Position numbers and translations under genes: made by a program. The notes below the pieces were generated by a model that did not search any database, was not told the DNA's origin, and saw only the letters and a list, made by a program, of their open reading frames with translations. Positions 3,930 to 64,000 of a DNA stretch of 64,000 nucleotides are shown piece after piece. The stretch comes from Bolinopsis microptera (taxonomy: Eukaryota), in contig NC_087073.1 in assembly GCF_026151205.1 (NCBI RefSeq), positions 19,292,658 to 19,356,657 of the forward strand, given 5' to 3'. Numbering within the stretch: the stretch's first letter is position 1; each line of letters opens with the position of its first letter.

Positions 3930-5100
3930 CCAGGTTCACACTGCACAGTTACCATGTTCCCGACATTGTCTCTAGGTTCACACTGCACAGTCTACATGTT
4001 CCTGACATTGTCTCTAGGTGCGCACTGCACAGTCTCCATATTCCTGACCTCGTCTCCAGGTGCACACTGAACAGTCTCCATGTTCCTGACATTGTCTCTA
4101 GGTTCACACTGCACAGTCTACATGTTCCTGACATTGTCTCTAGGTGCGCACTGCACAGTCTCCATATTCCTGACCTCGTCTCCAGGTGCACACTGCACAG
4201 TCTCCATGTTCCTGACCTCGTCACCAGGTGATACTGCACAGTCTCCATGTTCCTGATCTCGTCTCCAGTTCACACTGCACAGTCTCCATGTTCCTGACCT
4301 AGTCTCCAAGTGCACACTGCACAGTCTCCATGTTCCTGACCTCGTCTCCAGGTTCACACTGCACAGTCTCCATGTTCCTGACCTCGTCTCCAGGTTCACA
4401 CTGCACAGTCTCCATGTTCTTGACCTCGTCTCCAGGTTCACACTGCACAGTCTCCATGTTTCTGACCTAGTCTCCAAGTGCACACTGCACAGTCTCCATG
4501 TTCCTGACCTCGTCTCCAGGTTCACACTGCACAGTCTCCATGTTTCTGACCTAGTCTCCAAGTGCACACTGCACAGTCTCCATGTTCCTGACCTCGTCTC
4601 CAGGTTCACACTGCACAGTCTCCATGTTCCTGACCTCGTCTCCAGGTTCACACTGCACAGTCTCCATGTTCTTGACCTCGTCTCCAGGTTCACACTGCAC
4701 AGTCTCCATGTTTCTGACCTCGTCTCCAGGTTCACACTGCACAGTCTCCATGTTCCTGACCTCGTCTCCAGGTTCACACTGCACAGTCTCCATGTTCATA
4801 ACCTCGTCTCCAGGTTCACACTGCACAGTCGCCATGTTCCTGACCTCGTCTCCAGGTGCACACTGCACAGTCTCCATGTTCCTGACCTCGTCACCAGGTT
4901 CACAATGCACAGTCTCCATGTTCCTGACCTCGTCTCTAGGTTCACACTTCCAAGTCTCCATGTTTATGACCTCGTCTCTAGGTTCACACTGCACAGTCTC
5001 CATGTTCCTGACCTCGTCTCCAGGTGCACACTGCACAGTCTCCATGTTCCTGACCTCGTCACCAGGTGCACACTGCACAATCTCCATGTTCCTGACCGCG
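3930..5100. repeat. 42-bp minisatellite, about 28 tandem units
   Basis: Unit GGTTCACACTGCACAGTCTCCATGTTCCTGACCTCGTCTCCA with point variants. It lacks stops in several frames on both strands, which produces the artefactual ORFs 3949-4248, 4118-4777, 4582-5139 and 4905-5135. On the minus strand it encodes the 14-aa repeat ETVQCEPGDEVRNM. Confidence 0.9.
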
Positions 5101-7403
5101 ATCATGTTCACCGACCATCTCCACCCTGCCAATAGGTAACCAACAGCCTTTTTGTATAGGTCGCTATAGAATAAGGGATTCAGAAAACTGTTGCCTGGGA
5201 TGACCACCAGAGCGAACACCTCAAAGACTGAAGGTGGTACTGGTTGTTTGGAAATGAGCTGGTAATAGACTGTTGCTATGATAAAGGGTATCCATGCTAT
5301 GAGTTGACTTCCGATCATAAGAGCTACTTTTAGTGTTAGAGATCGTGTAATGTCCACCTTTTGTGCTTCTTGTAGAACCGCAACACGTGCTTTACTCTTT
5401 CTATCTTCCAGCAATATTTTGGTGTATGTTACAAGTACTGTGACCAACAGTACTGCCAGAGTTGTGCAGTAGAGAAGTTTGTAGATCTGATAAGATTCCT
5501 GGAGTTTGAAGATGTTGTGGACACATAATCCGGTGTTACCGTAGTAACCTATCTCTTCACTATCGAATATGCTTCCATTTGAAGTCGTGTTTCGGAGCTT
5601 TTCCAGCATGGCGTTTGTGTTAGTTTCCGTAGAAAATGCACCCTCGTACATTATTTTAATTCTAGGTAGGTCGATAGGATTTTTGCTAAAAAATGGATTA
5701 TCATCAAGATGAGTGAAAAATATTTCCGTCCTAAAAATATCCTGTACAGCAGAAATGGATAGGAGCGGAAGAATAGCATGAGCTACATTTAGGAGAAGAC
5801 CTAAAGCGGATCCTAAGACGACCATCCTTGTTTTTATTTCCCAAACCATACTGGTGCAATTCAGCCATCTGATCACACTAACAGATGCGACAGTTAACAA
5901 GGAGCCATGGGAGGATACAGAGAAGAGCACACCAAGACTAGAGCACGATATGCTCGCTCGCCACTTTCTCTCCAACAAGCAGTAGTCGCCTTTGAATCGG
6001 AGCACTGTATCGGCTATAACGATACAGCACAGATATAATCCCATCAGCAGATCGTAGAAGAATATTTGGAGACGGAAAGTTCTGTCAATTCGACCGGTCT
6101 TTGAATCCTTCTGGGAGCGATAGCATTTGTATCCCTCTACAGAGTTGATGATGACGATGAAGAGGCCCATAAAAATTGTGACTACTAGAACCGGTATGGA
6201 TCGAATAAGGAACTTTGAGGAGGACAAACTTCCCAGGTCACATGTCCCACATTCATCACTACCGTCAGCACAATCCTTCACATGATCACATACTTTGTCA
6301 GGATCAACCCACTCTGCTGTTGAGTTTGGGCTGCAATAGAACCTGCCCGGACATCCAATTTCATCTGCCCCATTTTTACAGTCTTGCTTTTCATCACACA
6401 ATGCTGTTACGTGGAAAGACTCTGTTCCAGATCTAAACGGATCTTTCTCACAGTCAAAAACGAAGTCGCTCTCTGACCATGAATCACTAAATACGTGATC
6501 ACAAAATTGTACCCAATTTTCCACCACGAAGTCTGTTTCGTTAGTGCAGTTATATTTGCAATAAGATGACACGAAATTTATTGGATCCTCACGCATTGAT
6601 GACATAAATGACTGGTAGTTATGTCGGTATTGTCTAAGACACGAGTACAAGGGAGACATTTTATCAGGATCCCGAAAAGCCTCCTCACATTTATCAGCGT
6701 CACTCTTATCTGGAATAGTACAATTCAAATTAGTTGACAGGCTACCCAGGCACGATACAGCGGGCAAACAAATGGGAGTGCTGCTGATTACCGGGCAAGA
6801 TATCTTCACAGAATCTTCACAGTAACATTCATCAGACCCATCAATGCAGTCCTGGGTACCATCACATAGACCGTCGAACGAGATGCAGCCTGAGCCGTCA
6901 AAGCAGTAGAAAACTTCAGTCAAGTTATTTTTGCAGCCACACTCATCAGTGAGACACTGGGACACACCATCACAGAGATTCTTATCAGGCAGAGAACAGG
7001 TCCATACTGCATCTTCATCACTTGCAATCTCATCGACATAATCTGTGGGGTCAATCTCTCGGAAATCACTTGCAATCTCATCGACATAATCTGTGGGGTC
7101 AATCCCTCGGACGTGGCCTTGGTAAGGGTCGAAGTTGAACCGACATATTGTGGAACTATTCCCTAGTTCTTTGGCCGGTTTATGATTATCATAATATCCA
7201 GGAAACATGAACAGCATTCGAGAATATTGGAAGCATTTTGTTATTATCTCTGTGTCGCTCATGGGCAAATAGGGATGCTGTCCGTTATACTTCGCAAATT
7301 CAACTGTAAACATTCTCCCCTGAGGACCAGTGCCCGGGACTTGAAATGGAAAGAGCGACAGAAGAAGCAGCAAGAAGACACCCCAAGATGGAATATCCCT
7401 CAT
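4551..7403 (-). CDS. Rhodopsin-like GPCR with N-terminal LDL-receptor class A (LDLa) modules. The ORF runs into the minisatellite, so the 3' end is uncertain and the functional CDS probably ends near 5100-5150
   Basis: A single 950-aa ORF. N-terminal signal peptide MRDIPSWGVFLLLLLSLFPFQVPG. LDLa signatures CFDGSGCISFDGLCDGTQDCIDGSDE and CSPNSTAEWVDPDKVCDHVKDCADGSDECGTC. Seven hydrophobic segments, with an NPxxY motif (NPLFYSDLYKK) in the last helix. After that the ORF continues through about 13 copies of the minisatellite-encoded 14-mer. Confidence 0.7.
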   Translation of the reverse strand: MRDIPSWGVFLLLLLSLFPFQVPGTGPQGRMFTVEFAKYNGQHPYLPMSDTEIITKCFQYSRMLFMFPGYYDNHKPAKELGNSSTICRFNFDPYQGHVRGIDPTDYVDEIASDFREIDPTDYVDEIASDEDAVWTCSLPDKNLCDGVSQCLTDECGCKNNLTEVFYCFDGSGCISFDGLCDGTQDCIDGSDECYCEDSVKISCPVISSTPICLPAVSCLGSLSTNLNCTIPDKSDADKCEEAFRDPDKMSPLYSCLRQYRHNYQSFMSSMREDPINFVSSYCKYNCTNETDFVVENWVQFCDHVFSDSWSESDFVFDCEKDPFRSGTESFHVTALCDEKQDCKNGADEIGCPGRFYCSPNSTAEWVDPDKVCDHVKDCADGSDECGTCDLGSLSSSKFLIRSIPVLVVTIFMGLFIVIINSVEGYKCYRSQKDSKTGRIDRTFRLQIFFYDLLMGLYLCCIVIADTVLRFKGDYCLLERKWRASISCSSLGVLFSVSSHGSLLTVASVSVIRWLNCTSMVWEIKTRMVVLGSALGLLLNVAHAILPLLSISAVQDIFRTEIFFTHLDDNPFFSKNPIDLPRIKIMYEGAFSTETNTNAMLEKLRNTTSNGSIFDSEEIGYYGNTGLCVHNIFKLQESYQIYKLLYCTTLAVLLVTVLVTYTKILLEDRKSKARVAVLQEAQKVDITRSLTLKVALMIGSQLIAWIPFIIATVYYQLISKQPVPPSVFEVFALVVIPGNSFLNPLFYSDLYKKAVGYLLAGWRWSVNMIAVRNMEIVQCAPGDEVRNMETVQCAPGDEVRNMETVQCEPRDEVINMETWKCEPRDEVRNMETVHCEPGDEVRNMETVQCAPGDEVRNMATVQCEPGDEVMNMETVQCEPGDEVRNMETVQCEPGDEVRNMETVQCEPGDEVKNMETVQCEPGDEVRNMETVQCEPGDEVRNMETVQCALGD

Positions 7404-11390: not shown

Positions 11391-12767
11391 TTGAAGAAAC
11401 GTGGCCTTGACGGTGAATTACTATCTAACTATAGGCCTATTAGCAATCTCTCATTCTTGTCAAAAATCATTGAGAAGTGTGTATCTATACAGCTCACCAG
11501 TTATCTTGAGGATAACAACTTGCTTTCTAAAGTTCAGTCCGGCTATAGGAAGTTTCATAGCTGTGAAACTGCAACAACCAGAATCCATAACGACATCTTG
11601 ATAACTATTGACAAGAAAACTAAAGTTGTTCTTTTACTTCTAGATTTGAGTGCTGCCTTTGATACTGTCAATCACCCAAGATTAATCAAGAAGCTAAGAT
11701 CTGCCTATGGCATTACAGGCATTGCTCTTACATGGATCAGGTCCTACTTGGCTAACCGTTCATTTTGTGTTAAAGTCAAGGATTCGTCTTCCTCATCAAC
11801 TGTTCTTGAGATAGGTGTGCCACAAGGTTCAATCCTTGGCCCCCTGCTATTCATATTGTACACCAAAGATCTTGAGAACATTGCAAGTATGCATGGGTGC
11901 TGTATTCATTTGTATGCTGATGACACCCAGCTGTATTTCACTCTTGATTCTGATGACCCATCACAGCTAGAGCACAATATGGAACACTGTATGTCTGATA
12001 TCAAGAAATGGATGACAAACAATTTCCTTCAACTGAATTCTTCTAAGACTGAAGTCATCGTTATATCCTCTAAATTTGACTCAAAAAATATTCCAGCCTC
12101 TCTACAGATTGTTAAGGATCAAGAGCCACATGTTGTTAGTGGAACTGTGAAGAGTCTTGGGCTGTATTTGGACAGTTATCTTTCAATGAGTGATCAGATT
12201 ACGTCAGTGGTTCAAGCATGTAATATTCAGATCAGAAATTTGTGGTTTATTGCATCAAAACTGTCTTTTAACCTTAAGATTCAGCTTGTTCATGCTCTAG
12301 TACTCTCTAGAATTGATTATTGCAATAGCGTATATTTTGGACTGAGCTCTTATGATTTAAGTCGTTTACAGAAGGTGCAAAATTCTGCTGTAAGATTTAT
12401 TTTCGGGAGAGGAAGAAAGGCACACACTACTCCACTACTTAAGAAAGTTCATTTTCTACCAGTTAGATTTAGAATAGATTTTAAGATTGCCCTACTTGCC
12501 TACAAGTGTTTAAATAATATAGCTCCTCCTTACTTAAAAGAGTTGATATCTCCTAGGCAGCAAAGTTTTAAAAATGTACGTCTTGATAATGATTATTTTT
12601 ACCTTAGTTTTCCGCCCTCTCCTAACTATGTAAACACAGAGAAAGCTTTTAGTCACTGTGCAGTTAAAGTATTTAATTCCCTGCCATACGACATAAGATC
12701 AGCTGAGTCAGTTACATCTTTCAAGACCAAACTTAAAACATACTTCTTTTCTCTAGCATTTGATTGA
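11391..12767 (+). mobile_element. Non-LTR retrotransposon (LINE) reverse-transcriptase fragment, 5' truncated
   Basis: 458-aa ORF with RT motifs LLLLDLSAAFDTVNH, GVPQGSILGPLLF and LYADDTQL (YADD). No endonuclease domain upstream. Confidence 0.85.
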
Positions 12768-21998: not shown

Positions 21999-23397
21999 TC
22001 TTCTAGTTAACATATTAGTTGGGATGACTTGATTACGGTGTAGTCGATATTATACCGGGAAAAACGTACATCTTGTTGAGTTTAAATTGTACATGGTTCA
22101 GTAAGTCGCAGCTCGATCACGATATGTAAGAAATTTGGGTTCTAAAGATTGACAATTTTATTCAGACATTTTATCGAGTTCTCAATAAATAACTAGATAC
22201 ATAAATACTGAGGTGACCCGATCAGGTTCTGTGCACAATATAGATCAATTAAATCATAGTTCATTGAAGTCCGAAGGGATTCAAATTATCAGCTTTTGGT
22301 ACCGGAAAATTTCTTTTTGTTCTTTATTTTAGTTCAAATGAGTAGCTCGTTTTGCTGACCCAAATTAAGTTAATTCAAATCAAAATACCGCTTGTACTTT
22401 GTAACAAATTGTTTAATTAATTCCAAATTAAGATTCCTTATTAGATTGACTTGAGATTAATATTATGAGAATTGTTGATCTTCAAAAAATGATTTAAATC
22501 ATTGTGGAGTGGTTTGTGGCTGGATGGGCTTTAGTTAGATTATTAGTTGTATTAATAGATCTTACAGTACTGCAAGGGATCGTTCACATATCACATGGTT
22601 ATAATTGATAGCTATGTGTAAACTTGCTGACCGACCGGGTTGGAATCTAAAATATTTAAACTAGATAATATGTGAACGGTCACTCAGTAAGCAAATTTGA
22701 GCCGCGTTTTAAGAGTATTTATCAGCCAGTCCAAATGTATTGAAATGTATATTGTAGATTGTAGGTGTGTTGCAATGGATATTTGGCAATGTTCAATTAT
22801 TGTTAATGATTACTGGAGATATAACGATATAAATTACGTTCACACAACATTAACGGCAAGTTTTAATTTGTTGATTTGTTAACTAAAATGAGTTGTCTCC
22901 GTGATCCATGTTTTATTGACACGTGATGTCGGTATACAATCAGTTTCCAGTAGCAACCAGTCCAAAGACTACCAGTGGTCAGGAGTGTACAAAATTGTGG
23001 ATCACCTCCCTAGCCCTGGTAATGTATGATCTATTGTGAATAACATCCAAAGAAAACAGTTATATCAAACAAACTTATAATGCATAAATTGATGAACTGT
23101 TACATTTCACTAAAACAAACTAAAGATTCACTAAATTGAAATTTGCAAATAATATTGTTGTAAGTTTTACAGGTTACAAAAGTCTCAATCTTCTGACAAA
23201 TGAATGTTATAGAAATTTACAGTCAAAACTATTTCAATAGTGCTACAAACAATATATATGCTAATCACTGAAATTAAAGAGTAAAACCGCTTTAATGATA
23301 AAACCTGAAACCATTAAAGCTCAAGGTCATCCGAACATAAATTATTTGTTAATCAAATCAAACTAAAACGAATACAATACTATTCACATGTGTCCAC

Positions 23398-23403
23398 TTT
23401 TTA
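23398..23403 (-). promoter_or_regulatory. Poly(A) signal AATAAA for MVP
   Basis: The minus strand reads gagTAAATAAaaa directly after the stop codon. Confidence 0.5.
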
Positions 23404-23404
23404 T

Positions 23405-26400
23405 TTACTCCGCAAGTCCAATTTTAACATCACTTGTAGAAATAGTTCCCCCGATGAGACCTTTAGCCGTGTTGAAAAGGTTAAGAGGTGTTGATCCATC
23501 AGTGATGAGGGTAGACTTGAGCCCTAATGCTTCCAACATTTTTACCTGATAATGATATATCACATTGAGGAAGTTATAAGACTGTTACATACTGTTTAGT
23601 GCATACTGAATCAAATTAATAACTCTGCACTTCTCGACGAACTTGCAGAACAGCAGGCCCAACCCTTGAGCTTAAGACGAATAATGTATGACATTTATTC
23701 AGCTATAAGTTACCTGGTTGTCTTTTCCAGAGGTTGCAATAGCAGCAATATTTAATGGTCCCAATTCTTCCACCATACGTTGGAACCTAGTCGACTCTAT
23801 ATCTGCCATCTTCTGTTTCTTGGATATCTCGAGCTCGTTGGTGGACTGAAGGTACTCCAGCTCACTTTTACGGGCTGATGTTATTCTGTGCAGCTCAGCA
23901 CGCTGAAGAATTATACAAGTTAAAAATAGCATTCGCCATATTTACTCCAGTAGCAGGGAGGAGTTGAGTGTGCACTTCGATGTACAGAGTTTTTTGCTGC
24001 TGAATCGGGTTAAATAGGTCATTGGTAACTCAAAAAATCGAGGGCCGCCTGTTGTGTCGCTAGTCCCAACCCTGTGGAGCCACGCCCATATTTCATATCA
24101 GGTGCGTATATGGGAAATATGTATCTCAGCTTCTGAAGGTCTTAGAGACTTAAACTTGAGTTTAAAATGACCGCAATACACATGTTTATGTTGGTACTAT
24201 GAAGGTCATGAAAGCCCAAAATGCTTATTTTTGGAAAAAATTCAGAAAAACCAATTTTCACTTGGGCGCGAGTAAAAAATCTACACTAGAAATTGAGTGA
24301 AAATCGAGTAAGCAGTTCAGTGTCTACCACATTTCTAAACACAGGGTCCTCTGTTAGGTCATTCTTAATCAGAATTGATAAAGTAAGCAAATTTTATTAG
24401 TAGTTTCAACCCTGTGGAGCCACGCCCATATTTCATATTATGTGTGAATATCGGAAATTTGTATCTCAGCTTCTGAAGGTCTTAGAGACTCAAAGGTGGG
24501 CTTAAAATGACCGCAATGTACATGTTTATATTGGCACTATGAGGGTCATGAAGGCCCAGAATGCTTATTTTTTGGAAAAATTCAGTAAAACCGATTTTCA
24601 AGTTTGCGACACTTGGGCATGAGTAAAAATCGACGCTTAGAAGTTAAGTGAAATCGAGTATGAAGTTCAGTGTCTGCAACGTTTCTAAACACAGGATCCT
24701 TTGTAAGGTCATTCTGAATCAGAATTGATAAGGTACAAAAATTCTATGAGTAGTTTCAACCCTAGGGAGCAAAACTCCTAAATTACCCCCAGGCGCAAAT
24801 ATATGACTTTTCTATCTCGGCTTCTGAACGTTGTAGGGGCCTCTCTTTGAGCTCAAACTAACCACGATGGCCACATTTATATACCAACTGTAAAGAAACA
24901 TAGGGTTTATACTTTATAGTGCTTAGTTTTTAAAAACTCATTTAAAAACTGTTTTAACCTTCATGCATCATAAAATAGTAACATCAAACATGTACTTAAT
25001 TATGGTATCTCGGGCTAAAAAAGTCTTATAGACATTTCCAGCACAGTAAAACGTTCAACATGAACACATTCGGATAACATTTATGGAGAAGCACATAGGT
25101 ACCACCTAACTTTAATTTTGGTATAACTGCGAAAATACTCAGTTTCAGAAGCTCCTTCCAGCTATCTTAGGCTGCCATCAGCTCCCTCTCTGGGACTCTC
25201 TCCAGTACTGCTTGGCTATTATGGCTAATCAACTTGAATCCAACCTCATGTAGTAGAATCTACTTCTAGTTACCTTCTGCTAAGTCCATGTCAACTCTAC
25301 CCAGCTACCACCACCAATATGTTATAATTTTAGATCTTTCTAGCAACTTCTGATATGAGTGCTACCTCTTCCTCTATCCAGCTACTATACCACCAGATGG
25401 CAGAAACCACCAATTCCAGCTGTCTCCACCTACTTCGGCTACCTCTATTTAGCTACCACCAAGGTTCCTCCAACTTCTGCTATTTCTAGCAACTTTAGCT
25501 TAGGGTAGTGGGCCTGGGCTACTTCTTGCCCTGTCTAGCAACCATCAGCAACATTTTATTCTGGCGTTTAGAGGTTGCTAGAAACAGCAAATTTCCTCTT
25601 CCTTAATGAGCTAGAAATTGTTGGATGCAGCAGAGGTTATACAGCACTCATATCAGAGGTTGCTAGAAAGATCTAAAATTATAACATATTGGTGGTGGTA
25701 GCTGGGTAGAGTTGACATGGACTTAGCAGAAGGTAACTAGAAGTAGATTCTACTACATGAGGTTGGATTCAAGTTGATTAGCCATAATAGCCAAGCAGTA
25801 CTGGAGAGAGTCCCAGAGAGGGAGCTGATGGCAGCCTAAGATAGCTGGAAGGAGCTTCTGAAACTGAGTATTTTCGCAGTTATACCAAAATTAAAGTTAG
25901 GTGGTACCTATGTGCTTCTCCATAAATGTTATCCGAATGTGTTCATGTTGAACGTTTTACTGTGCTGGAAATGTCTATAAGACTTTTTTAGCCCGAGATA
26001 CCATAATTAAGTACATGTTTGATGTTACTATTTTATGATGCATGAAGGTTAAAACAGTTTTTAAATGAGTTTTTAAAAACTAAGCACTATAGAGTATAGA
26101 CCCTATGTTTCTTTACAGTTGGTATATAAATGTGGCCATCGTAGTTAGTTTGAGCTCAAAGAGAGGCCCCTACAACGTTCAGAAGCCGAGATAGAAAAGT
26201 CATATATTTGCGCCTGGGGGTAATTTAGGAGTTTTGCTCCCTAGGGTTGAAACTACTCATAGAATTTTTGTACCTTATCAATTCTGATTCAGAATGACCT
26301 TACAAAGGATCCTGTGTTTAGAAACGTTGCAGACACTGAACTTCATACTCGATTTCACTTAACTTCTAAGCGTCGATTTTTACTCACGCCCAAGTGTCGC

Positions 26401-29400
26401 AAACTTGAAAATCGGTTTTACTGAATTTTTCCAAAAAATAAGCATTCTGGGCCTTCATGACCCTCATAGTGCCAATATAAACATGTACATTGCGGTCATT
26501 TTAAGCCCACCTTTGAGTCTCTAAGACCTTCAGAAGCTGAGATACAAATTTCCGATATTCACACATAATATGAAATATGGGCGTGGCTCCACAGGGTTGA
26601 AACTACTAATAAAATTTGCTTACTTTATCAATTCTGATTAATAATGACCTAACAGAGGACCCTGTGTTTAGAAATGTGGTAGACACTGAACTGCTTACTC
26701 GATTTTCACTCAATTTCTAGTGTAGATTTTTTACTCGCGCCCAAGTGAAAATTGGTTTTTCTGAATTTTTTCCAAAAATAAGCATTTTGGGCTTTCATGA
26801 CCTTCATAGTACCAACATAAACATGTGTATTGCGGTCATTTTAAACTCAAGTTTAAGTCTCTAAGACCTTCAGAAGCTGAGATACATATTTCCCATATAC
26901 GCACCTGATATGAAATATGGGCGTGGCTCCACAGGGTTGGGACTAGCGACACAACAGGCGGCCCTCGATTTTTTGAGTTACCAATGACCTATTTAACCCG
27001 ATTCAGCAGCAAAAAACTCTGTACATCGAAGTGCACACTCAACTCCTCCCTGCTACTGGAGTAATTCAATTCAAATACATACATCCATTGATTTAAGGGA
27101 TACTTGAAGGATATGTTCCTATATATCCTTTATTTCGATGCTACATATTTGTTGGGTAAAACTGTAAGATAAACAGTTAGGATTTAAACTTACAGCGTTG
27201 ATGTTTTGGGCTTCAGCTGCAAGTTTGGCCTGATCCACCGCAGCTTCGCCCTCTATTTTCATTGACTCAGCCCGGGACTGAGCCTCTGCTATTGCTTGTC
27301 CGGTACTCTCAACGGCGGCTGAGCTGTTTAGAGGAAACCATTATTGTTAGGATAATCATGGTGATACAGTATCAACTATCAATTAGTATTGAAAAGTAGA
27401 TACATTGCTAGTAAATGTAAATGATGGTAATCTTTGTTTCAGCCCTACATTGCTTGAAGTTCAAGTAGTTCCAAGCGAGATTTCTCTTCTTCAGCCTCAT
27501 CACTAAGTTTCTGTCGTTCTAATCTACCCATCGCCTCCTGGTCCAGTCTTTCTGCTTCATGCCTGAAATATGCCTACTATATACCACAACTAAAACCTAG
27601 ACAATAACCTAAAACCAGTATTAGAGTAAGAGAAAAGGTGGTTAAAGGTTTCCCGTATTCATGATAATTTAATAATCTTAACCAATGCACTACACATAGA
27701 GATTTATTATACGATATTCGTATACTTAATCTTAGTCGATGGCTTTGTAGTTTGTATATTTGGGTAGTAGAATGAAGAGTTCGGAGAAGGACTTCGAAGT
27801 GAGGAAAGCTAAGGCATGGGGAGCGTGTCACCAGATGAAGCTTGTATGGAAGTCGGATATGCGTAGAGATCTCAAGATACGACTGTTCCTGGCTACAGTC
27901 GAGTCCATCCTTCTATATGGCTCTGAAACATGGACTGTCAGCCAGACCCTCACAAAACGTATTGATGGATGTTATACGAGAATGCTGAGGATGGCACTTA
28001 ACATTGACTGGAAAGAGCGGCAGACTAACGCCAAGGTGTATGGACACCTCATCAGAGCATCTGATAAGATAGCTGCACGGAGGATGAGACTCGCAGGCCA
28101 TTTAGCCAGACATGAAGAACTATTGAGTCATCAACTTCTCTTCTGGGAACCCCTTCAAGGACATCGTTGAAGGGGAAGACCACACCTCACATTTATTGAC
28201 ATCCTTCGGAAGTACACGGGGCTTGACGACAGCAAGGAGACTAACAAACTCATGATAGACAGATTTGGAAGAAAACTATCTCTGTTCGGACATTGAAGCC
28301 GCCCTAAGTCGAGTAAGTCGATACTTAATCTATACTTTAACCACTTTTTAACGAAAATTGCACTGCTAAGGAATACAGATAAATAACCTGAAGCACCAAC
28401 CTAGCTGTGGCTTCCTGGGAGTTGGTTGTTATCTCAATGGCAAGTTGTACCGACTTCATGAGAGAGTCCCTTGTTCGCTGATCTACCGGCTCTACCGACT
28501 GTATGTCAATATTTGTGATCCTCAGACGGTTTGCAGGGAAGTGGAGGGAGTCATGGCTACCCAGGATGGATTCGTTTATTATTCGTGCAGAATGCTGAAA
28601 ATAACGTGGCGTTACCCTTACGCTTGGGGAAATAGAATATCTCAAAAATTTGAAACTTCACGATCAACTGCCTTGGAGAGATGAAATCCTGCTATTGATA
28701 GATGAGCACGATTCAACAGTTTACGGTATCAAAAAATTTACTTCGCCCTATCAAAATCATTCACCCTATTAAAACCAGAGTGCATTGTTCATACTACTCA
28801 CCTTATGAAAGTCATCAAAAGGTACAGCTGCAACAGCTCCTCTAATCTTGGAAGCTATGGATTTACAAGCGTCTCCGACAAAGTCCGGCACTGAGAACAG
28901 TGATTCCGAGTCACATTTGTAAGTAGGGGAATCACTTGCTGGTAACTCAAATTGCCTGTATGAGGATGAGTACAAAAGATTGTGGAGTACAGATTCGCCG
29001 TTTAGTAATGAGAGTGGTTTGAATAAATGCCATGCGTATTCAATATTATCAATCTATGACATTAATTGTACAACAATCGGGTATTCCAGATCAATTATCA
29101 TATTGAAAAAGTCATTTCACAGATATAATCTATGTTGTATCATTGATCATCCAGTGGGATAGTTGTTTGATTACTTAAAATAATCTGACTCCTACCAATT
29201 GTAACAGAGCTGCAATGAAAGTCTGGCATGATCAGAAGTCTCCACAGTAAATACATCCGTCATAAAGTCTGGTCCGAGTGAGAGGTCGAGGGTCCTGACA
29301 ACATTGGGTCGTTTTGGCTGGCCTCCAGATAAACTGAGTTGCGTGAAATGTTCGTCCGGTCCCAGCATGACTAAGTCAGGTCCAAATATCACCCTGAAAT

Positions 29401-38400: not shown

Positions 38401-40939
38401 GATGAACAAGCTGATCAGTGATCACGTGACTAAACAATGAGTAAACATTATACCAGACATGTCAGTGAAATAGCTATTGGTTAGATTAGGTTGAGAATTT
38501 AAAATATGTACATACTATAATCAACGGATTTTGCTTTATTGTTATGAAAAGAAAACAAATAATCTAGTGCAAATAAATAACAAGATGGTAGATATAAACC
38601 TTGCAGTCTTTTTTAGCTCTGAGTTTGAGTGCAGTGTGAGGTGTGTAATAATAATAATAATAGGATTATGGCCACATGGCCATCCCGACAAAACTTGAAA
38701 CCCAACTGCACTCTACGCTATTGCAGTTCGCACAATATTATCAAAAAGAAAAATGTTCCTATCCGGAACATTTAATGATTAATTATTTTTAGGACGTTAA
38801 CATGTAGTTCTGAATTTAACAATCAAGAAACATTGATTCCTCGGTATTTAGCAATCAATGGGTTATTAGACATGAAATGTGCATATGAATCATGCTCACA
38901 TGTATTTATTTTTGACATCAAGGTTTCGCTGAGATCCCAGAAGTGACCCTTTGACGATGCTCCACTCGCTATCATGTGCTGAGTGGAGTTCATCCCCACT
39001 AGCATCTCTGATTCCAGATATTGCAGCCCTAATCTTGCGCTTGGAGTTCATATAGCTGTAGAAAGCTTTTGGATTTATTTTTAGCTGGGCTGCTGCTTTA
39101 TTCTCATAGCATATCATGAGCTGCTGTTGCTTCTTCTCGTAAGCACTCTGCTGATGTAGTGCATGATTCAGGTTTTTTGATGTCGGGTCGTTTTCAAAAA
39201 TAGACCACAGTTTTTCTTTTAGCTTCCGTGCCTTGATTAGACATGGTTTGTCCCAGACCGATCGTGATTTTATTGCACCTGCACGATTTATCCTCAATTT
39301 GACGACTGGGACAGCTTCAGCAATGGTGTTGGCATTGGCCTGAATCAGATTCCAGTGCTCTTCAATAGTCAAGTCATGATTGGCACTCCATTGCAGCGGC
39401 CCTGCTGTATCAATGATTAGATCTTTGTTTGCTTTTGACCAATTTTTCTTCTGTTGAGTCACATACTCATCATGGTTAGCAATTGACCACTTACTGATAA
39501 TTCCCACATGGTCTGATTTTCCCAGCGGTGCGGTTATTTGAACTTCCTGAAATATGGCGGGGTCTGAAGTCATAACATTGTCAAGAGTTGACGATTGCAC
39601 TGTTGTTAAAACCTTCCTTCTGCGAGTTTTAACATCGTCTCCGATAACCCAACTGAGATCATGTTTTGCGAAAAAATCAAGATAGCACTGTTGAATCAGG
39701 AATTTTTGATTAATTGAATTATTCGGACATTTAACTACACCTAAATCCCACACAACATCAGGAAGATTGAAATCTCCCATCATGATTAGTTCGGTATTAG
39801 GGGCTAGATTTTCAATCGCTACGGACAGATTAGATAACATTGATTGACACTTATCGATTGTTAATGAAGGGGATCGGTATATAACAAATAAGGGATTATA
39901 GTTGCCACGATCGTCTCAACTATCTCAACCTCAACTCGGGGAATGTACGTTCCTGGACAGATTGGGTGTTGAAACATCTCAAACTTGTGTTAAATTATAT
40001 TGAGCTCAAACGTTTACTGAATCGGAAAAGTAGGAAACAAATTTCAACTTTCAAAAACGTACCTGGTCCCTCAAAAAGCCACTGATCCAAAGCAAGTCGT
40101 TCTATTTCTCCGTCCTTGAAGTCCATGACGGCTTCTAACCGCAAAGCCGAGTCACGAGGAACAGCTTTAAGTTTGGTTACAATTTCTTGAAGTGCCTCTC
40201 CTGGATAAAGTGGGAAGGGTTCACCTGTCAGCCTCACTTCAAAGTCGCCGTGTCTTAGTTTCACCTGGTTTTATTTCTTCGTTTATCAATAACGAAACTA
40301 CACACATTGAATCGACAATTCTTAACAATTAAATTTACATTTTGAATGATAAGGTGGCTACCAGCGAAAGTTAAAAACTGTACGACTGAATATGATTCAG
40401 ATTAAAATCGTCTGATTACTAGTGAACTTACCATTAAAATAAATAATACAGATAATAAAATTAGAAAACTGAAAAGTAAACCATTATTAAAATAGACTTA
40501 AATGAAGTTATAATAAATAATGAAACCTGTCCAGATGATTCAAGGACAACTTCTCCAGCAGAGTCTCTAATGACTGGATGACGAATCACACAGTAATGGT
40601 TTGGTGGCACTGTAACCATTTTTTCTGGTCCCTCGACAACTTCTTCATTGTCCTGAAAAATGAGCATTGAGTCCCTGCAATATATAGCTGAGTAAATTCG
40701 CTGTGAAAGCACCATTTGAATTGAAGATACAGTTAACAATAAGAAAATGTTGCTTGATTAAGTAAAACTCCGACATCGCTGTCATACTGTGACATAAAAT
40801 GAGTTCAACTTACTTGTCTAACAAAAGTTGTTGGGCCAGTAAGGACCTTTGTGATGTTACTACTTTGGTCAAGTATGTGTAGATAGTAGAACGGTGGTAT
40901 CCTAAAAATTCCCCGAGCATCTGGAACAAGTTTCTTCAT
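23405..40939 (-). CDS. MVP: Major vault protein (MVP) gene, at least 17 coding exons
   Basis: Exons in plus coordinates, listed 5' to 3' on the minus strand: 40814-40939 ([42 protein letters not shown]), 40527-40660, 40064-40261, about 39880-39952, about 38600-38650 (the junction between these two is unresolved), 38184-38396, 37868-38014, 37593-37725, 37243-37392, 36862-37109, 29206-29393, 28802-28955, 28401-28594, 27449-27562, 27194-27323, 23714-23902, 23405-23545. The translation aligns along its full length with remembered vertebrate MVP. Examples are [159 protein letters not shown], the coiled-coil region, and the C-terminal [24 protein letters not shown]. Stop TAA at 23405-23407 overlaps AATAAA. 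Confidence 0.9.
23942..27056. repeat. 3.1-kb near-perfect palindrome: about 1.42-kb arms (23942-25363 and 25644-27056) around an about 280-bp loop
   Basis: 27056 backwards is the exact reverse complement of 23942 forwards (ttactccagtagcagggaggagttgagtgtgcac...). Each arm contains about 2.7 internal tandem copies of an about 360-bp unit (tagtcccaaccctgtggagccacgcccatatttcatat...). The palindrome occupies about 95% of MVP intron 23903-27193. Confidence 0.9.
27760..28290 (+). mobile_element. LINE ORF2 C-terminal fragment in an MVP intron
   Basis: ORF 27760-28170 (...[10 protein letters not shown]...[23 protein letters not shown]...[15 protein letters not shown]). The frame continues after one stop into [37 protein letters not shown], the typical LINE 3' tail. 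Confidence 0.65.
29527..30506 (-). mobile_element. Internally deleted pogo/Tigger-like DNA transposon remnant
   Basis: The transposase fragment at 29855-30160 on the minus strand ([27 protein letters not shown]...[40 protein letters not shown]) resembles the DDE_1 C-terminal region (QPLD.GII..FK..Y...W). The flanks 29527-29660 and 30380-30506 are inverted subterminal repeats (ttcccaaaaatttgggcgacc...aatttgggc motifs). Exact ends and TSD are not resolved. Confidence 0.45.
32613..33454 (+). CDS. Unknown gene or pseudogene: two ORFs in different frames (32613-33179, 33209-33454), with a possible spliced leader exon near 31830-32200 and an acceptor at 32525
   Basis: ORF1 [26 protein letters not shown] is weakly NERD-like. 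The ORF2 C-terminus [16 protein letters not shown]...[22 protein letters not shown] resembles SF1-helicase motifs V/VI (NVALTRAR-type). No P-loop is seen. The frames differ, so there is either a frameshift or an unrecognised intron. Confidence 0.3.
33727..34231 (-). pseudogene. Rhodopsin-like GPCR fragment or pseudogene, TM3-TM7
   Basis: ORF 34046-34231 ends ...[10 protein letters not shown] (the E/DRY motif), followed immediately by a stop. ORF 33727-34044 carries hydrophobic helices and NPVLYIRR (NPxxY). It is unrelated to the LDLa-GPCR at 4551-7403. Confidence 0.45.
34732..35751 (-). mobile_element. L1-type (type II) LINE ORF1 protein gene, solitary
   Basis: 339 aa. Central coiled coil ([41 protein letters not shown]). 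RRM-like [17 protein letters not shown]...[34 protein letters not shown]. This matches the L1 ORF1p pattern (RRNNLRIIGVPE...RPIIVKF...KILKAAR). No ORF2 downstream. Confidence 0.6.
36440..36740 (-). mobile_element. tRNA-derived SINE, copy 2
   Basis: Minus-strand tRNA-like head (GGCTTAGTGGCTCAGTTGGTTAATCC...CCAGGTTCGATTCCCGA) followed by a body sharing AGCTAAGGATCC and GAGGGTTAAATGAGGAG with copy 1 at 9060-9290. Confidence 0.5.
38896..39840 (-). mobile_element. LINE ORF2 apurinic-endonuclease (EEP) domain fragment in an MVP intron, same strand as MVP
   Basis: 314-aa ORF with [10 protein letters not shown] (GDFN) and KSDHVGI (SDH), the motifs of APE-type LINE endonucleases. It is continuous with 39841-39900 upstream. 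Confidence 0.75.
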
Positions 40940-42656: not shown

Positions 42657-44747
42657 TTAGTCTGCGTCATCTGCGTCATTTCTTTGTATTATACAACTTC
42701 GGCGGGTAATATTTCTCCATCCTTTTCGATCTGCAGCCAATCTTCTCATACAATCAATCGTGAGTCCATTACGATCCAATCTCTGCTCAGCATCTTCAAT
42801 AAATACATCATTTAAGCTCTTCCTAGGCCTGCCTCTTGATCGTTTCCCATGCTTGGGTTTCCATTCAAGTAGATAGTTAGGTAACCGATCTTCAGGCATT
42901 CTACTGACATGTCCAAACCAACGTAGCCGTTTTGTTGCTATTATGTCAGTAAGAGCAGTTATTGAAGCCCTTCTTAAAACATCTTCATTTCTTACTCGAT
43001 GGAACCACCTCACTCTCAGGATTCTGCGTAAGCAGTACTGATGGAAAGACTCTAATCTTCTTGTCTGCACTTGAGTCGTGTTCCATATCTCACTTCCATA
43101 GGTCAGAATGGTAAGAACAGCTGCGATGTAGATTCGCACTTTGTTGTTAATGCTTATGTTCTTATTCTTCCAAATGTTATTGAGTTGGTTAAAAGCTCCG
43201 GTTGCTTTTCCAATCCTGACACTTATTTCTTTATCGATCTTGCCATCCGATGTAATTTTGGCACCCAAATAAGTGAATTGAGTGACCTGCTTTGCAGAGT
43301 TTCCATCGACAGTAATATCTATGGTCCTATTCTCTGGGAGTGGGTGCTGCGACGTATCTTTCCCAATTACCATGATCTCTGTTTTCTTTGCGTTCATCTT
43401 TAAACCCCCAAGCCCACAGTATTTCGCAATATTGTCCGTTGTTTCTTGCAGTCCCTCGACAGTGTCATCCATGCCTGCTATGTCATCAGCATAGTCCAAA
43501 TCAATGACACATTTTTCCGGTTGTCTGGAACTTTGTCTGTACTGAAGAGTAAAACCACGCGATATATTTTTAAACTTCTCGGCAAGTTCTAATCCCCAGT
43601 TAAGTACAAGGTTGAAAATGGGAGGCCCTTGCACATCACCTTGTCCAGTCCCCGAATCGACATCAAACCATCTTGTCAATTCCCCATTGACACGAACTGC
43701 ACTTTCAGTTGCTCTAAAGAACGCTTTGAAAACATTGATGTATTTTGTTGGAAGACCATAATGTTCAAAAGCTTTCCAAATAAAGTCACGATTGATTGAA
43801 TCAAAAGCAGCTTTAAAATCAATAAAGTTTATATACAAAGGGACGTTGAATTCTATACAATTGTGTATTATACAATGAAGGGAGTATAGCTGATCTATAC
43901 AAGAACGGTTTCTCCTGAAACCACACTGATTTTCTCTAAGTAACTTTTCAAGCCCATTACTTAGTCTTTTTAACAACACGATTTGAAATAACTTCGATAC
44001 GGTGGAGCGTAGAGTTATCCCTCTGTTGTTGTTGCAATATGTGAGGTCCCCTTTCTTTGGGATGATGGTGATGATTCCTTTCCTCCAATCACTAGGAATA
44101 TCCTCACTTTTCCATACAGTTTCAAACAAATCTTTTAACCAAGGCAGAAGTCCAGGAGAACCGTACTTTAACTGCTCATTTGAAATTTCATCAATTCCAG
44201 CACTTTTGTAGTTCTTCAACTTCTTGATAGCTTCCTCAATTTCAAACAAGGACGGTGGCTCATCATCATTACTAAGATATTCAAAAGAAAGTACCTTTTC
44301 GTCCTCATCCAATAGAGAGAAATCCACCGCATCTGCTGCTGGCGTCAAGAGTTCTTCAAAATATTCGGCCCAGCGATGTGACTGAGCTTCGGGATCTGAT
44401 ATAAGTGTCCCATTCTTATCCCGCACTGCCGCAGATCTGTTTACTCTCTTGTTTGTAAGGGATTTTATTTTCTGCCAAACATCTCTTTGTTGACCCTGCT
44501 TGGCAGCCTCTTCCAATTCCTCAGCTACTCTAACAGCCCAGGCATTATCATCTCTTTTACAGTTCTGCCTAACAAGACCGTTAATCTGCGAGTACTTAGC
44601 ACGATTCTCAGCAGTACTAGGTTTCTTTTTAATCTCACCTCGTTCTTTTAGGAGATTCTTAGTATCCTTTGAGAGATGTTCTGTTTTCTTTTTCCGGCCC
44701 CTTTCACCCAGAACTTCAAACGAGATATCAGTTATAATGTCTCTCAA
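42657..44747 (-). mobile_element. LINE ORF2 reverse transcriptase, 5' truncated with no EN domain; the RT core plus C-terminal tail are intact
   Basis: 696-aa ORF with GFRRNRSCIDQL, FIDFKAAFDSI, GTGQGDVQGPPIFNL, YADDIAG, then LTYGSEIWNTT...RRILRVRW...LRWFGHVSRMPEDRLP. Confidence 0.9.
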
Positions 44748-45266: not shown

Positions 45267-46672
45267 TCATGAGATATTTATTCCCTTTCTCTTGGCAACA
45301 CACGGATTTTTATATAAATATTGGACTTGTTGCTTCTTCTTTTCGATATAATTTACACCCTCTATTTTTGCTAAAACTATATTTGACACTTCCCAAAAGT
45401 TGCCTGTGTCTACTAAATTATTAGTCTTTTTAAATTCTTCTAGATTAATTTTAAAATCAATAACAGACACTGAATTTCTAACAAAAGATGGCAATTTATT
45501 CCAAAAGCTGATAACACGCTCTGATAAAAAATTATTAGACAAGGTTTTAATATTTCCATCAATATTGTTAGATTTAGTGCTAACAATTTTATCTCCCGAT
45601 CTACTTAAATTGAAAATATCTTTTCCATACTCAACCAATCCATTTACAATTTTGTAGGCTTCAATCAAATCTCCTCTAACCCGTCTCTCTGCGAGTGTTG
45701 TAATCTGTAAGGCATCCAACCTTTCACTGTAAGGAAGTGTTCCAATATCATCAATAAGGCGTGTGAACCTTCTCTGGACATTTTCCAGTTCAATGATAGT
45801 AGCCCAATTCCCATGGCAGGCAGGTACCTTCTTCAGATTTGAAATGGTCGAAACATATTAAAAGTTGTATTAGTAAAGCAAACAGTATGATTGCATGGGT
45901 TACAAGGAATCTCATTATAAGAGAAATTAATGTTATGAGAAATGTTTATAAAACTATAATAAGACCCCACTTGGAGTATTGTGCTCAGTTGTGGTCTCCA
46001 CCTGCAGGTGGAGACCACAACTGACCACAACTGAGCACAATACTCCAAGTGGGGTCTTATTATAGTTTTATAAACATTTCTCATAACATTAATTTCTCTT
46101 ATAATGAGATTCCTTGTAACCCATGCAATCATACTGTTTGCTTTACTAATACAACTTTTAATATGTTTCGACCATTTCAAATCTGAAGAAGTTAAAACTC
46201 CAAGATCTTTCTCTGCTTCAATACATTCAAGTGTAACACCACTAAATACATATTCTTGAAGGGGATTTTCATTAAATGGAACATGCATTATTTTGCATTT
46301 GCTAGGATTAAACTTTAACAGCCACACATTTTGCCAGTTTTGCAAGCTTTCTAACATATTGAAAGTGCTTTCAGTGTCATTGGCATCCATAATAACTTTA
46401 AGATCATCTGCAAACAGTTTTGATATACCATTAATACAATCAGGCAAGTCATTGATAAAAATGACAAACAATAAAGGACCTAAAACAGACCCTTGTGGGA
46501 CGCCTGATAAAACATCACGAAGGTAGGAATATGCTCCACCAACAAATGTCTTAAATCTTCTTCCAGATAAAAAGTCTTTCACAATATCTAAAGTGTTACC
46601 ACTTATACCCAAATTTCTCATTTTTGTAAGTAGTCTATATATTTTAATACTTTCAACACTACTATATAACAA
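45267..46672 (-). mobile_element. LINE ORF2 RT core plus C-terminal domain, from a different family
   Basis: ORF 45833-46672 carries GVPQGSVLGPLLFVIFINDL and KLFADDLKV (FADD). ORF 45267-45719 carries ERRVRGDLIEAYKIVNG...ISFWNKLP, the typical non-LTR C-terminal region. The reading frame is broken by the internal inverted duplication at 45840-46190. Confidence 0.8.
45840..46190. repeat. Inverted duplication (about 175-bp arms centred on CCTGCAGG at about 46006) inside the LINE
   Basis: 45840-46005 is the reverse complement of 46012-46185 (ataagaccccacttggagtattgtgctcagttgtggtctccacctgcagg|tggagaccacaactg...). ORF 45839-46024 on plus encodes the same peptide as the LINE ORF on minus. Confidence 0.8.
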
Positions 46673-46937: not shown

Positions 46938-48590
46938 ATGTCTAGAATACCAGTTGGCTCAAGACATTACAATCTGAGATATCGAGGGAATTCTGTTAAA
47001 TTCCCCAGCAACGGCTCTTGTCCTACTGATAAATGTTCAAATTGTTTAACTCTATTAAGAGAGAATGATAGTCTTCGTCGGCAAATTTCTTTTCTCTATA
47101 AACAATTATCAGAAAGTGACAGTGCACTCAAAGTTCCCCTCAGCGATGGTTCACTTATCCCTGTATTGCCCCAGGTACCTGATCACTGTGAACATTCTAT
47201 CAATGTTCCCCTCAGTAATAGGTCATCCTCGCATCTTGTTTCTGAGTTAACCCAAGAGCTATCCAAATTAGCAGAAGACAGTGAACATTCAGCAGAAATT
47301 ATCAATTTGGAAAATCCCAAAAACTCTGTAAATGGTGACAATGATGTGACCAACTCTATCAATCCATACCAAGATTTGAGTCGAGGAGTTTTTCAGTTTG
47401 TTGACACTGCCAAGTTAGATATAGAAACCCACTATACTCATAAGTTTAAGAATAGGGCAGTTGCATATTACGGGGACTTTCCCTACGCTTACAATGGAGG
47501 GTTTCATAACACAAGGCCAGTAGCAGACAATCCATACCTAAAGTCTATTCTAGAACGCTTACGCTCACAGTTCCCAAAATTGAAATTCAATAGTGCTATG
47601 ATTACCAAGTATAGAAATGGTCAGCAAGGAATTCCCTTTCACTCGGATGACGAGAGGTCAATTTCACCAGGCTCCATGATCTCCACCATCTCTTTAAGGG
47701 CTACTAGAGTCCTAAGCTTCAGATCCAAACTTAGAGCTCATATTGCTGACCTCACCCTCTCCCATGGTGACATAATGAATATGACCAGACAATCCCAGAC
47801 CAGCTTTGAACACAGCCTCATCCAGGACAAGTCTGAAACCATGAGAATAAGCATTACTCTGCGCCTAATTGATGGCAGCGCAACCTTATCTACTCTGTCT
47901 GATGTTTCCAGTCAAGTTAAGAACACTGAACCCTCGGCCCCTAAGACTAGATCAATAGAACATTCTGGTAAATCTTTGTGTGTCTACATTAGCTCTAGTA
48001 TGTTCTCCAAATTAGAGGGAGAAAAGCTATCGTCCAAACATCATGAGGCACATGTATTCAGCTACCCTGGTGCCACAGCCAATGCAATCAATGAACGGTT
48101 TCAATCAGATGTAAGAAAAGACACTCTTAATACCAATAATGCGAAAAGCATTGTACTTATGTGTGGTACAAATGACGTGGACTCTATCCTGAACAGCCCT
48201 CGCAACATGAGGACTAAACTTCTGTGCCCTGATAGTTTTTCTGGTGATGCTAGAGCTCTTGACTTTACAAACAATTGTATTGAAAAACTTGTACTTTTCC
48301 TTCACAAGTGGGCACCTGGAGCTGATATTAAAATTGTTAACTTATTACCTCGGGAGAGTTTCTCCAGAAACAAGGTTATAACTGATATCAATGAGTGTAT
48401 ATCAAATCTGCAAAGAAAATACACCTATGTAAAACTGCTCTCAACCGAGACAAATCGTTTCTTGTTTAGTGATAAGAAAGGCTTTAGAAAATCGTCATTT
48501 TTTAGTAGTTATGGAGAGGATAATGTCCATCTCAATGATTATGGCATAGTTAAATTAGCAAGGCACTTGAAGTATCATGCACACCATTAG
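46938..48590 (+). mobile_element. LINE ORF1 with SGNH/GDSL-esterase-like C-terminal domain (CR1/L2-type ORF1)
   Basis: 550 aa. Cys-rich N-terminus (CPTDKCSNCLTLL). The C-terminal half has esterase block signatures VYISSSMFS, LMCGTNDV (GxND) and DNVHLNDYG (DxxH). It lies directly upstream of the EN-containing ORF2. Confidence 0.6.
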
Positions 48591-48745
48591 AATACTGCTG
48601 AATACTGACATAACACTCCTACCATCAGTTTTATTTTTACAGTACGACATCCAGACAAATACAACCTGCTTTTATTCTGTTTTTTAGTTTAAACACAACT
48701 TTACAACTTTTATTCATTCCATTGTGAATTAATAAGATTCACAAG

Positions 48746-63889: not shown

Positions 63890-64000
63890 TTTTTTATACT
63901 CCCTGAAATTGACCGTATTATAGTGCTCTAACTATCTGAAGAGTTTAAAGAAAATTTATCAATACAATTTTCCGTTATTCAAGAATCCGGCAAAAATTCT
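63890..64000 (-). repeat. Start of a second array of the same 171-bp satellite in inverted orientation, running off the window edge
   Basis: 63891-64000 is the reverse complement of the unit (tttttatactccctgaaattgaccgtattatagtgctctaactat...caagaatccggcaaaaattct). It is separated from array 1 by an about 810-bp unique spacer. Confidence 0.9.

Follow-up and report, generated by a model that had tools for sequence, protein, structure and literature searches.

A probable foldback-type non-autonomous DNA transposon in an intron of a major vault protein gene

The window (the whole 64-kb stretch of DNA that was analysed) carries a major vault protein (MVP) gene on its minus strand, in which an intron of 3,291 nt (23903..27193) is defined by GT/AG boundaries (GT at 27193-27192, AG at 23904-23903) and by an in-frame join of the neighbouring exons. 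The upstream exon (27194..27323, minus strand) belongs to the cap-helix region, and the downstream one lies at 23714..23902 on the same strand. Their joined product corresponds to residues 713-816 of solved major vault proteins (E ~1e-20), and the protein of the downstream exon shows 97% identity to P0001 of L002, an ENA SOLA22-1 metagenome scaffold from a close relative. The window also carries an LDLa/7TM/Sushi receptor ORF and LINE ORFs, which together with MVP point to animal DNA.

A repeat search confirmed that a very long inverted repeat occupies the MVP intron, as proposed in the initial annotation. The left arm (23942..25363, 1,422 nt), which includes one base of the target-site duplication (TSD) by chance complementarity, faces a right arm of the same length (25643..27064, 1,422 nt). 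The arms are not free of mismatches, although the palindrome had been called "perfect" from the stretches compared at first. The base-by-base comparison gave 99.58% identity with six substitutions (left-arm positions 24364, 24619, 24863, 24907, 24914 and 25348) and no indels, and an inverted repeat of 1.4 kb at 99.6% identity is far beyond chance. The distance of 40 bp between the left end of the repeat and the exon boundary at 23902 was reproduced, while the right end, previously placed at 27056 and 137 bp from the donor, was measured at 27064, leaving 129 nt to the donor. The element proper, bounded by comparison with the empty site in L002 described below, covers 23943..27063 (3,121 bp), most of which is made up of the two arms. 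It begins with 5'-TACTCCAGTAGCAGGGA... and ends with ...TCCCTGCTACTGGAGTA-3'.

Each arm consists of three parts. An outer unique domain (23943..24060 in the left arm, mirrored at 26946-27063) is followed by a tandem subrepeat array (24061..24831, with the units 24061-24400 and 24401-24750 and a partial third; mirror image at 26175..26945) and an inner unique domain (24832..25363, mirrored at 25643-26174). The existence of tandem subrepeats had been recognised earlier; however, the unit is 340–350 bp long instead of ~360 bp, and the arrays, with ~2.3 copies per arm, account for only ~54% of each arm and do not build it entirely. The subrepeats are mutually 81–85% identical (84.7% between units 1 and 2). 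The arms enclose a middle domain of 279 nt (25364..25642), which is non-coding and carries short TCTAGCAAC and GTTGCTAGA motifs in both orientations.

No ORF of at least 50 aa was found in the element, and exact look-ups of two of its ORFs returned nothing on record. Whole-database protein searches with concatenated pseudo-ORFs of the window element and of a related copy (L004) yielded zero matches, evidently since these ORFs are either uncalled or lack conservation, as one would expect of non-coding DNA. Neither an Rfam scan at a permissive threshold nor a tRNA scan of 23600-27400 produced a match, so there is no support for deriving the subrepeat from a SINE or an ncRNA. A transposase or an autonomous partner was likewise not found.

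The scaffold L002, which is ~90–91% identical to the window in both flanks, provides an empty site. Its alignment runs from 27614 to 27064 of the window and then straight on to 23942-23635. Once the element and one ATT triplet are taken out, the alignment of the window and L002 crosses the junction gap-free, and here L002 reads ..CCCAG ATT CAATTC.. with a single ATT. In the window, ATT occurs twice, at 23940..23942 and 27064..27066, and is thus a direct repeat flanking the element, in disagreement with the earlier statement that there was no TSD; this TSD is based on a single complete insertion and a single empty site, and the contigs of the relatives are truncated and show each copy at one end only. 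The MVP intron measures 167 nt when the insertion is removed, and the orthologous introns are ~166 nt in L002 and ~152 and ~157 nt in the more distant relatives L001 and L006, respectively. At the level of sequence comparison, these data show insertion of the whole element into a formerly 167-nt MVP intron with duplication of the 3-bp ATT, and they date it after the split of the window lineage from the L002 lineage. A seemingly exotic palindrome intron thereby becomes a dated and bounded transposon insertion with an empty-site control. The initial annotation had favoured a foldback-type structure over a classical insertion; the foldback type holds, and the insertion is established by the TSD, the empty site, the short orthologous introns and the copies of relatives at other sites.

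These copies were recognised with a 25-mer of the subrepeat, which matched three marine metagenome contigs (L003, L004 and L005). Their arms are 80–83% (~82%) identical to those of the window element. The copies in L003 and L004 start with the same TACTCCAGTAGCAGGGA terminus amid unrelated flanks (..AACCTATT| in L003 and ..GAGCTCT| in L004), and all four ends observed in the family have the form TACTCC...GGAGTA. The outer unique domain is ~88% conserved in L003 and L004, with invariant blocks of 20–27 nt, and the middle domain is partly homologous to the centres of L004 and L005. The arms of L004 and L005 are ~1 kb long and 99.7% identical; L004 itself re-enters the inverted arm (934-1032 versus 2294-2392). 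Since related copies share a terminus amid different flanks and have arms of ~1 kb, they form a family of mobile elements whose terminal inverted repeats (TIRs) are long. Within the element, the identity between L003 and L004 is 99.35%, an indication of recent transposition. The subrepeat arrays of L003-L005 are one unit shorter than those of the window element, and gain or loss of the 340-bp unit is symmetric in both arms. Multiple copies at different sites were seen in related organisms, and the 64-kb window contains a single copy. With an nhmmer profile of five arms, neither diverged nor solo copies were detected in the window or in L001, L002 and L006. The exact 26-nt terminus had zero matches in metagenome contigs, and neither the bacterial/archaeal genome contigs nor the viral contigs contained a match to a degenerate 42-nt pattern of the terminus. 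For annotation, the termini and TSD are now defined for a seemingly unclassified repeat family that appears to have been active recently in related marine metazoans.

Based on the above results, the palindrome in the MVP intron is very probably one inserted copy of a class II DNA transposon (cut-and-paste type) that is non-autonomous and has foldback architecture. We infer its superfamily and its cut-and-paste mechanism only from the TIRs and the TSD. In foldback elements, the TIRs are long and internally repetitive, and the middle domain does not code for protein (PMC4079207); the window element has very long TIRs with tandem subrepeats, a short non-coding middle, a TSD with an empty site, and copies at several sites. 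It is a known kind of mobile element and not a new type of structure or genetic system. A transposase encoded elsewhere would recognise the conserved TACTCCAGTAGCAGGGA termini and make 3-bp staggered cuts. The 99.6% identity of the arms may reflect a young insertion, intramolecular gene conversion or hairpin-templated repair, or a combination of these. Recent formation and ongoing gene conversion had already been named as the alternatives, and this was the right pair. The arms of one element differ by 0.3–0.4% and the elements of the family by ~18%, and for this reason homogenisation of the arms is favoured. The symmetric gain or loss of the 340-bp unit in the two arms is in line with this. 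Such homogenisation is typical of foldback elements.

The 3-bp TSD and the termini, taken together, appear to fit none of the superfamilies tested. Zator is a superfamily with a TSD of about 3 bp, and PIF/Harbinger elements are flanked by a direct repeat of the 3-bp TWA (TTA or TAA); the direct repeat here is ATT, whereas a left TTA paired with a right TAA is no direct repeat and disagrees with the empty site. Academ also has a 3-bp TSD (PMC5199201). Both Academ and Zator are otherwise recognised by a superfamily-specific transposase or terminal consensus, and the element has no coding copy. The window element resembles CACTA/EnSpm (CMC) elements in the 3-bp TSD and in having structured repeats near its ends (PMC8978399), but the subterminal repeats of CACTA/EnSpm have units of 10–20 bp and those found here are 340–350 bp long, and the CACTA...TAGTG termini are absent (TACTC here).

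In architecture, the closest likeness is to Drosophila FB, Tetris of D. virilis and sea-urchin TU, whose TIRs combine an outer domain with internal tandem repeats around a short non-coding middle (PMC4079207). Most copies of FB-type elements also lack a transposase, and their arms are nearly identical (PMC4079207). However, the subrepeat unit of the window element is long (340–350 bp) and its copy number low (~2.3) compared with FB-like elements, and those assigned so far mostly have 8–10-bp TSDs and belong to the Mutator superfamily (PMC4079207, PMC3169594). A Mutator/MULE-type foldback element (FB, Tetris, Tm1) needs a TSD of 8–10 bp (PMC4079207), and the 3 bp seen here do not agree with this. 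Galileo of Drosophila (P superfamily) is similar in its internally repetitive TIRs, which reach more than 1 kb and vary in length between copies (PMC3573991), and within a single Galileo copy the TIR pair is 98–100% identical (PMC3573991). It differs in its 7-bp TSDs and in having known transposase-encoding copies, while a coding copy of the window element was not found; the P superfamily as a whole requires a TSD of 7–8 bp (PMC3573991, PMC5199201) and is rejected on the same grounds. Tc4 of Caenorhabditis elegans, from the Tc1/mariner group, likewise has a foldback structure and generates a 3-bp duplication when it inserts (PMC11071193, citing Yuan et al. 1991). Its target is CTNAG with duplication of TNA (PMC11071193), whereas the target in the window is ..T ATT C.. 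with duplication of ATT; the empty site CCCAG-ATT-CAATTC contains no CTNAG, and Tc4 was rejected.

The affinity of Tc4 is relevant to another reading of the ends, which we regard as improbable. The element could have been mobilised by a TA-targeting transposase of the Tc1/mariner or pogo type, the element proper then being CTCCAGTAG...CTACTGGAG flanked by TA, and ATT being only apparent through a 5-bp ATTTA indel in L002. All four observed ends are indeed preceded by TA and even by TTA (T-TA-CTCC), Tc1/mariner elements duplicate TA (PMC5199201), and the foldback element Tc4 of C. elegans belongs to the Tc1/mariner group (PMC11071193). However, this reading has to assume a further indel of 5 bp at precisely the junction, where the model with ATT is gap-free; the alignment with the L002 intron has a single, small indel, close to the 3' end, and the Tc4 target is missing. 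Returning to the element with an ATT duplication, there is a small but real chance that it represents an undescribed foldback lineage in marine animals, with a 3-bp TSD that is neither TWA nor TNA, TACTCC termini and a mobilising superfamily not previously linked to foldback architecture, and that the intronic copy transcribed with MVP is a natural hairpin trigger silencing the rest of the family.

The position of the transposon in the intron may explain how it is tolerated. A putative branch-point motif, UUUUUAAC on the sense strand (23919..23926, minus strand), was read from the sequence between the element and the acceptor and is conserved in L002. Because the element lies upstream of this putative branch point, the branch point, the pyrimidine tract and the AG would be undisturbed, and its placement after the 5' splice site region but before the branch point may be why the insertion is tolerated. 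The sense segment of 3,391 nt has a predicted MFE of -2,825 kcal/mol, with 1,418 of the 1,422 arm positions pairing in register. The suggestion that the pre-mRNA forms a dsRNA stem longer than 1.4 kb is borne out by this predicted fold, which gives a duplex of ~1.42 kb. On transcription, the arms would snap back into the duplex, looping out the insert and restoring a path of ~168 nt between the splice sites. The locus offers a clean natural case in which to study the tolerance of a conserved gene for a 3.1-kb snap-back insert in an intron of 167 nt.

The 1.4-kb duplex would be a potential substrate for Dicer or ADAR. Since the duplex lies within an intron, siRNAs derived from it, if any, would correspond in sequence to other transposon copies but not to mature MVP mRNA. 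Long inverted-repeat hpRNA loci are known sources of endo-siRNAs (PMC10317233), and the window repeat resembles such loci (e.g., Drosophila hpRNAs; PMC10317233) in being a long, near-perfect inverted repeat within a host transcript with a predicted long dsRNA. In contrast to them, it is intronic and lineage-specific, matches a transposon instead of a host gene, and is known here from the predicted fold. In maize, Mu killer is a TE-derived inverted duplication that triggers RNAi. The MVP locus allows one to ask whether host read-through of a foldback element yields dsRNA against its own family. That the structure is a device selected by the host, i.e., an hpRNA/endo-siRNA locus, an editing substrate or a splice-site-bridging stem maintained for MVP regulation, seems to us quite unlikely, in spite of the predicted duplex bringing the splice sites within ~168 nt. 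Three related lineages, with introns of 152–166 nt, lack the element, which argues against a conserved host function, and the sequence of the element belongs to a mobile family. Moreover, the intron was spliced at its short length before the insertion, and bridging was therefore not needed. If the element has a role in siRNA production, RNA editing or splice-site bridging, this would follow incidentally from a young insertion and would not make it a conserved device.

The palindrome could also have arisen in situ, by local inverted duplication of intron sequence through break-induced foldback replication and without any mobile element. This was the view of the initial annotation and agrees with the single copy in the window, but we consider it very improbable, as the sequence of the palindrome is wholly absent from the ancestral-type introns of L002, L001 and L006, the same sequence and terminus occur at other loci in related organisms, and a 3-bp duplication flanks the whole structure. 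An assembly foldback artefact, with a false inverted duplication stemming from a mis-join or a chimeric long read, is hardly credible and already largely refuted, since, in spite of the near-identical arms typical of such artefacts and a second small palindrome in the window (45825-46194), the arms differ by six substitutions, the unique 279-nt centre has homologues at the centres of related elements, the precise ends and the 3-bp duplication have a matching empty site, and independent short-read metagenome assemblies show the same long-arm architecture in related copies. Assemblers working from short reads will break at the palindrome of the MVP intron, and the site may be prone to rearrangement.

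On the minus strand, segments 27323-27194 and 23902-23714 joined in frame, and the intron between them is bounded by GT (27193-27192) and AG (23904-23903) splice sites. The 106-residue product of the joined exons aligned with residues 713-816 of major vault proteins (MVP) of solved structure, with E ~1e-20. An inverted repeat fills 3,123 nt of this 3,291-nt intron and is separated from the donor by 129 nt and from the acceptor by 39 nt. Based on an inverted-repeat search of positions 23000-28000, the dominant structure has two arms of 1,422 nt each (23942-25363 and 25643-27064) with 279 nt between them; its right end was measured at 27064, not at 27056 as the initial annotation had placed it. 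The 1-base extension check revealed no further pairing base on the outer or inner side of the arms. The palindrome, first described as perfect, is real and near-perfect: base-by-base comparison of the arms gave 99.58% identity, with no indels and six substitutions (left-arm positions 24364, 24619, 24863, 24907, 24914 and 25348), and exact identity was not borne out.

The left arm comprises an outer unique domain (23943-24060), a tandem array of two full units (24061-24400 and 24401-24750) followed by an incomplete third that reaches ~24831, and an inner unique domain (24832-25363). The array is mirrored in the right arm at 26175-26945. Subrepeats had already been recognized in each arm; their unit is 340-350 bp rather than ~360 bp, they are 81-85% identical among themselves, and the array makes up ~54% of each arm. 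The element ends in the terminal pair TACTCCAGTAGCAGGGA...TCCCTGCTACTGGAGTA, and no second copy of any of its parts was found in the 64-kb window. No ORF of at least 50 aa, no Rfam match at E<=1 and, by a tRNA scan, no tRNA-like sequence was found in the element. Concatenated pseudo-ORFs gave no match in two database searches, two exact look-ups of element ORFs returned nothing on record, and no DNA transposase ORF was present among the window ORFs scanned against Pfam. The window element is non-autonomous.

A protein search with the two MVP exons led to short ORFs on metagenome contigs from related organisms. The contig L002 (ENA, SOLA22-1 marine metagenome, 1,374 nt), encoding the protein P0001, was 90-91% identical to the window and aligned with positions 27614-27064 and then straight on with 23942-23635. 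Its junction reads ..CCCAG ATT CAATTC.., and that of the window ..GCCAT ATT [TACTCC....GGAGTA] ATT CAATTC... When the element and one ATT are removed, the window aligns to L002 with no gap across the junction. Two ENA long-read metagenome contigs from more distant relatives (L001 and L006, ~80% exon identity) carry orthologous introns of ~152 and ~157 nt. The ancestral intron was therefore ~150-170 nt long, as judged from the short orthologous introns in the three contigs. These alignments indicate that a 3,121-bp element (23943-27063) was inserted into it, duplicating ATT. Contrary to the initial annotation, in which no target-site duplication (TSD) was seen, ATT stands on both sides of the element (23940-23942 and 27064-27066), and the empty site in L002 carries it once.

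Querying the JGI metagenomes with the exact terminus gave zero matches. A conserved 25-mer of the subrepeat matched three marine metagenome contigs (L003, L004 and L005); in these, the element shares 80-83% identity with the window arms and is shorter by one subrepeat unit. In L003 and L004 the homology begins exactly at the same terminus as in the window, TACTCCAGTAGCAGGGA, and the DNA upstream of it is unrelated (..AACCTATT| in L003 vs ..GAGCTCT| in L004). Within the element the two contigs are 99.35% identical, which marks them as insertions of a recently active element at two different sites. From the left terminus, L004 passes through an arm of ~1 kb and a centre of ~1.26 kb and into the inverted arm (934-1032 vs 2294-2392, 97%), where the short-read contig stops. 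L005 contains the centre and the right arm, the latter being 99.70% identical to the reverse complement of the L004 left arm (3 mismatches in 1,004 nt). Judged from the sequence only, plus-strand frames in the L004 centre (1094-1506) look like the C-terminal region of a LINE reverse transcriptase (..KYCYLGIIF..), so a retroelement fragment may have been nested in or captured by this copy. Evidently, the foldback middle domain can vary freely.

It should be noted that a T lies directly outside the element at all four observed ends, and that two of the three left flanks compared (L003 770-772, L004 19-21 and window 23940-23942) end in ATT. This pattern may reflect a target preference. Reading the target as TA is not strictly at odds with the data, as TA precedes all four ends, but it needs an additional 5-bp indel precisely at the junction. 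Selection of the element by the host as a hairpin device is unlikely, since three related lineages do without it. Formation of the palindrome in situ was rejected because the ancestral intron lacks the element sequence, which is found elsewhere with the same end. An assembly artefact was also rejected: the arms carry substitutions, the unique centre is homologous to the centres of related elements, the TSD is precise and matched by an empty site, and relatives assembled independently show the same architecture. The striking palindrome is explained by a known type of element, a non-autonomous foldback transposon whose lineage-specific insertion left a 3-bp TSD.

Structurally, the element is a foldback as this term is used for FB, Tetris, TU and Galileo (PMC4079207, PMC3573991). 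Its 3-bp TSD rules out membership in the Mutator-type elements, with 8-10 bp (PMC4079207), and in P/Galileo, with 7 bp (PMC3573991). CACTA elements share a 3-bp TSD and have CACTA termini and 10-20-bp subterminal repeats (PMC8978399); they were ruled out by the TACTCC termini found here. Tc4, a foldback of C. elegans, likewise makes a 3-bp duplication but requires CTNAG/TNA (PMC11071193). This motif is absent at the site, which rules out Tc4 membership. Harbinger requires TWA, and its absence here rules out that group as well.

The arms differ by 0.42% in the window element and by 0.30% in L004/L005, the difference between the window element and the L003-L005 group is ~18%, and that between subrepeat units 1 and 2 is ~15-19%. 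The gain or loss of the 340-bp unit separating the window element from L003-L005 is symmetrical in both arms. Judging by these comparisons, arms with separate histories from the common ancestor onwards could not be so alike; they must have been either homogenized, by intramolecular conversion or hairpin-templated repair, or regenerated in each amplification round. For the window copy, a young insertion alone would also be sufficient to account for the arm identity. Assuming that the two arms started out identical when the element inserted, we infer that the insertion dates to about the most recent 4-5% of the period following the window/L002 split, because 0.42% between the arms compares with ~9-10% between the window and L002. 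High arm identity is usual for the foldback class, the terminal inverted repeats of one Galileo copy being 98-100% identical (PMC3573991).

In the predicted fold of the 3,391-nt sense pre-mRNA segment (MFE -2,825 kcal/mol), 1,418 of the 1,422 arm positions are paired in register; two of the six arm differences become G-U pairs and four stay mismatched. Pairing of the arms in this stem would leave 129 + 39 nt between the 5′ splice site and the acceptor, close to the length of the ancestral intron. A conserved UUUUUAAC motif (23919-23926), a plausible candidate branch site, is located downstream of the element. Together, the shortened splice path and the position upstream of the putative branch site may explain why the insertion was tolerated. 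The predicted duplex could feed Dicer or ADAR, for which hpRNA provides a precedent (PMC10317233). Because the duplex is intronic, any siRNAs would match the transposon family and not the spliced MVP transcript. In the DNA itself, cruciform extrusion is expected to be lower with the 279-bp spacer than in spacer-less palindromes; the 1.4-kb arms are predicted to remain a recombination substrate.

More LINE fragments (RVT_1, Exo_endo_phos_2) surround the MVP gene on both strands (11391-12767, 38896-39840 and 42657-44747). A second small palindrome (45825-46194; 172-nt arms, 1 mismatch, 26-nt loop) lies inside a minus-strand LINE reverse-transcriptase ORF (45833-46672, RVT_1). The frame breaks at the symmetry centre, so this palindrome represents an inverted duplication located where the retroelement copy is truncated. 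The plus-strand ORF 46938-48590 (550 aa) contains an AlkB-like 2OG-Fe(II) oxygenase domain (E 2e-17) and a weak GDSL-esterase match below the Pfam cutoff, and an endonuclease/exonuclease/phosphatase-domain ORF (48746-50308) follows directly downstream. The region 46938-50308 looks like a non-LTR retrotransposon with an oxygenase-bearing ORF1. Esterase ORF1s have literature precedents, as does an AlkB domain in plant Ty3/Gypsy elements; among the top literature matches there was none for AlkB combined with a LINE ORF1. An intron-less minus-strand ORF of 950 aa (4551-7403) matched LDL-receptor class A and, at scores below the Pfam cutoffs, rhodopsin-type 7TM and Sushi domains; this ORF, MVP and the LINE ORFs jointly indicate an animal genome. 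A satellite array with a 171-bp unit occupies 56627-63300 and 63890-64000 (at least 38 copies, most 99-100% identical), with an inverted piece of the unit (98%) at the very end of the window.
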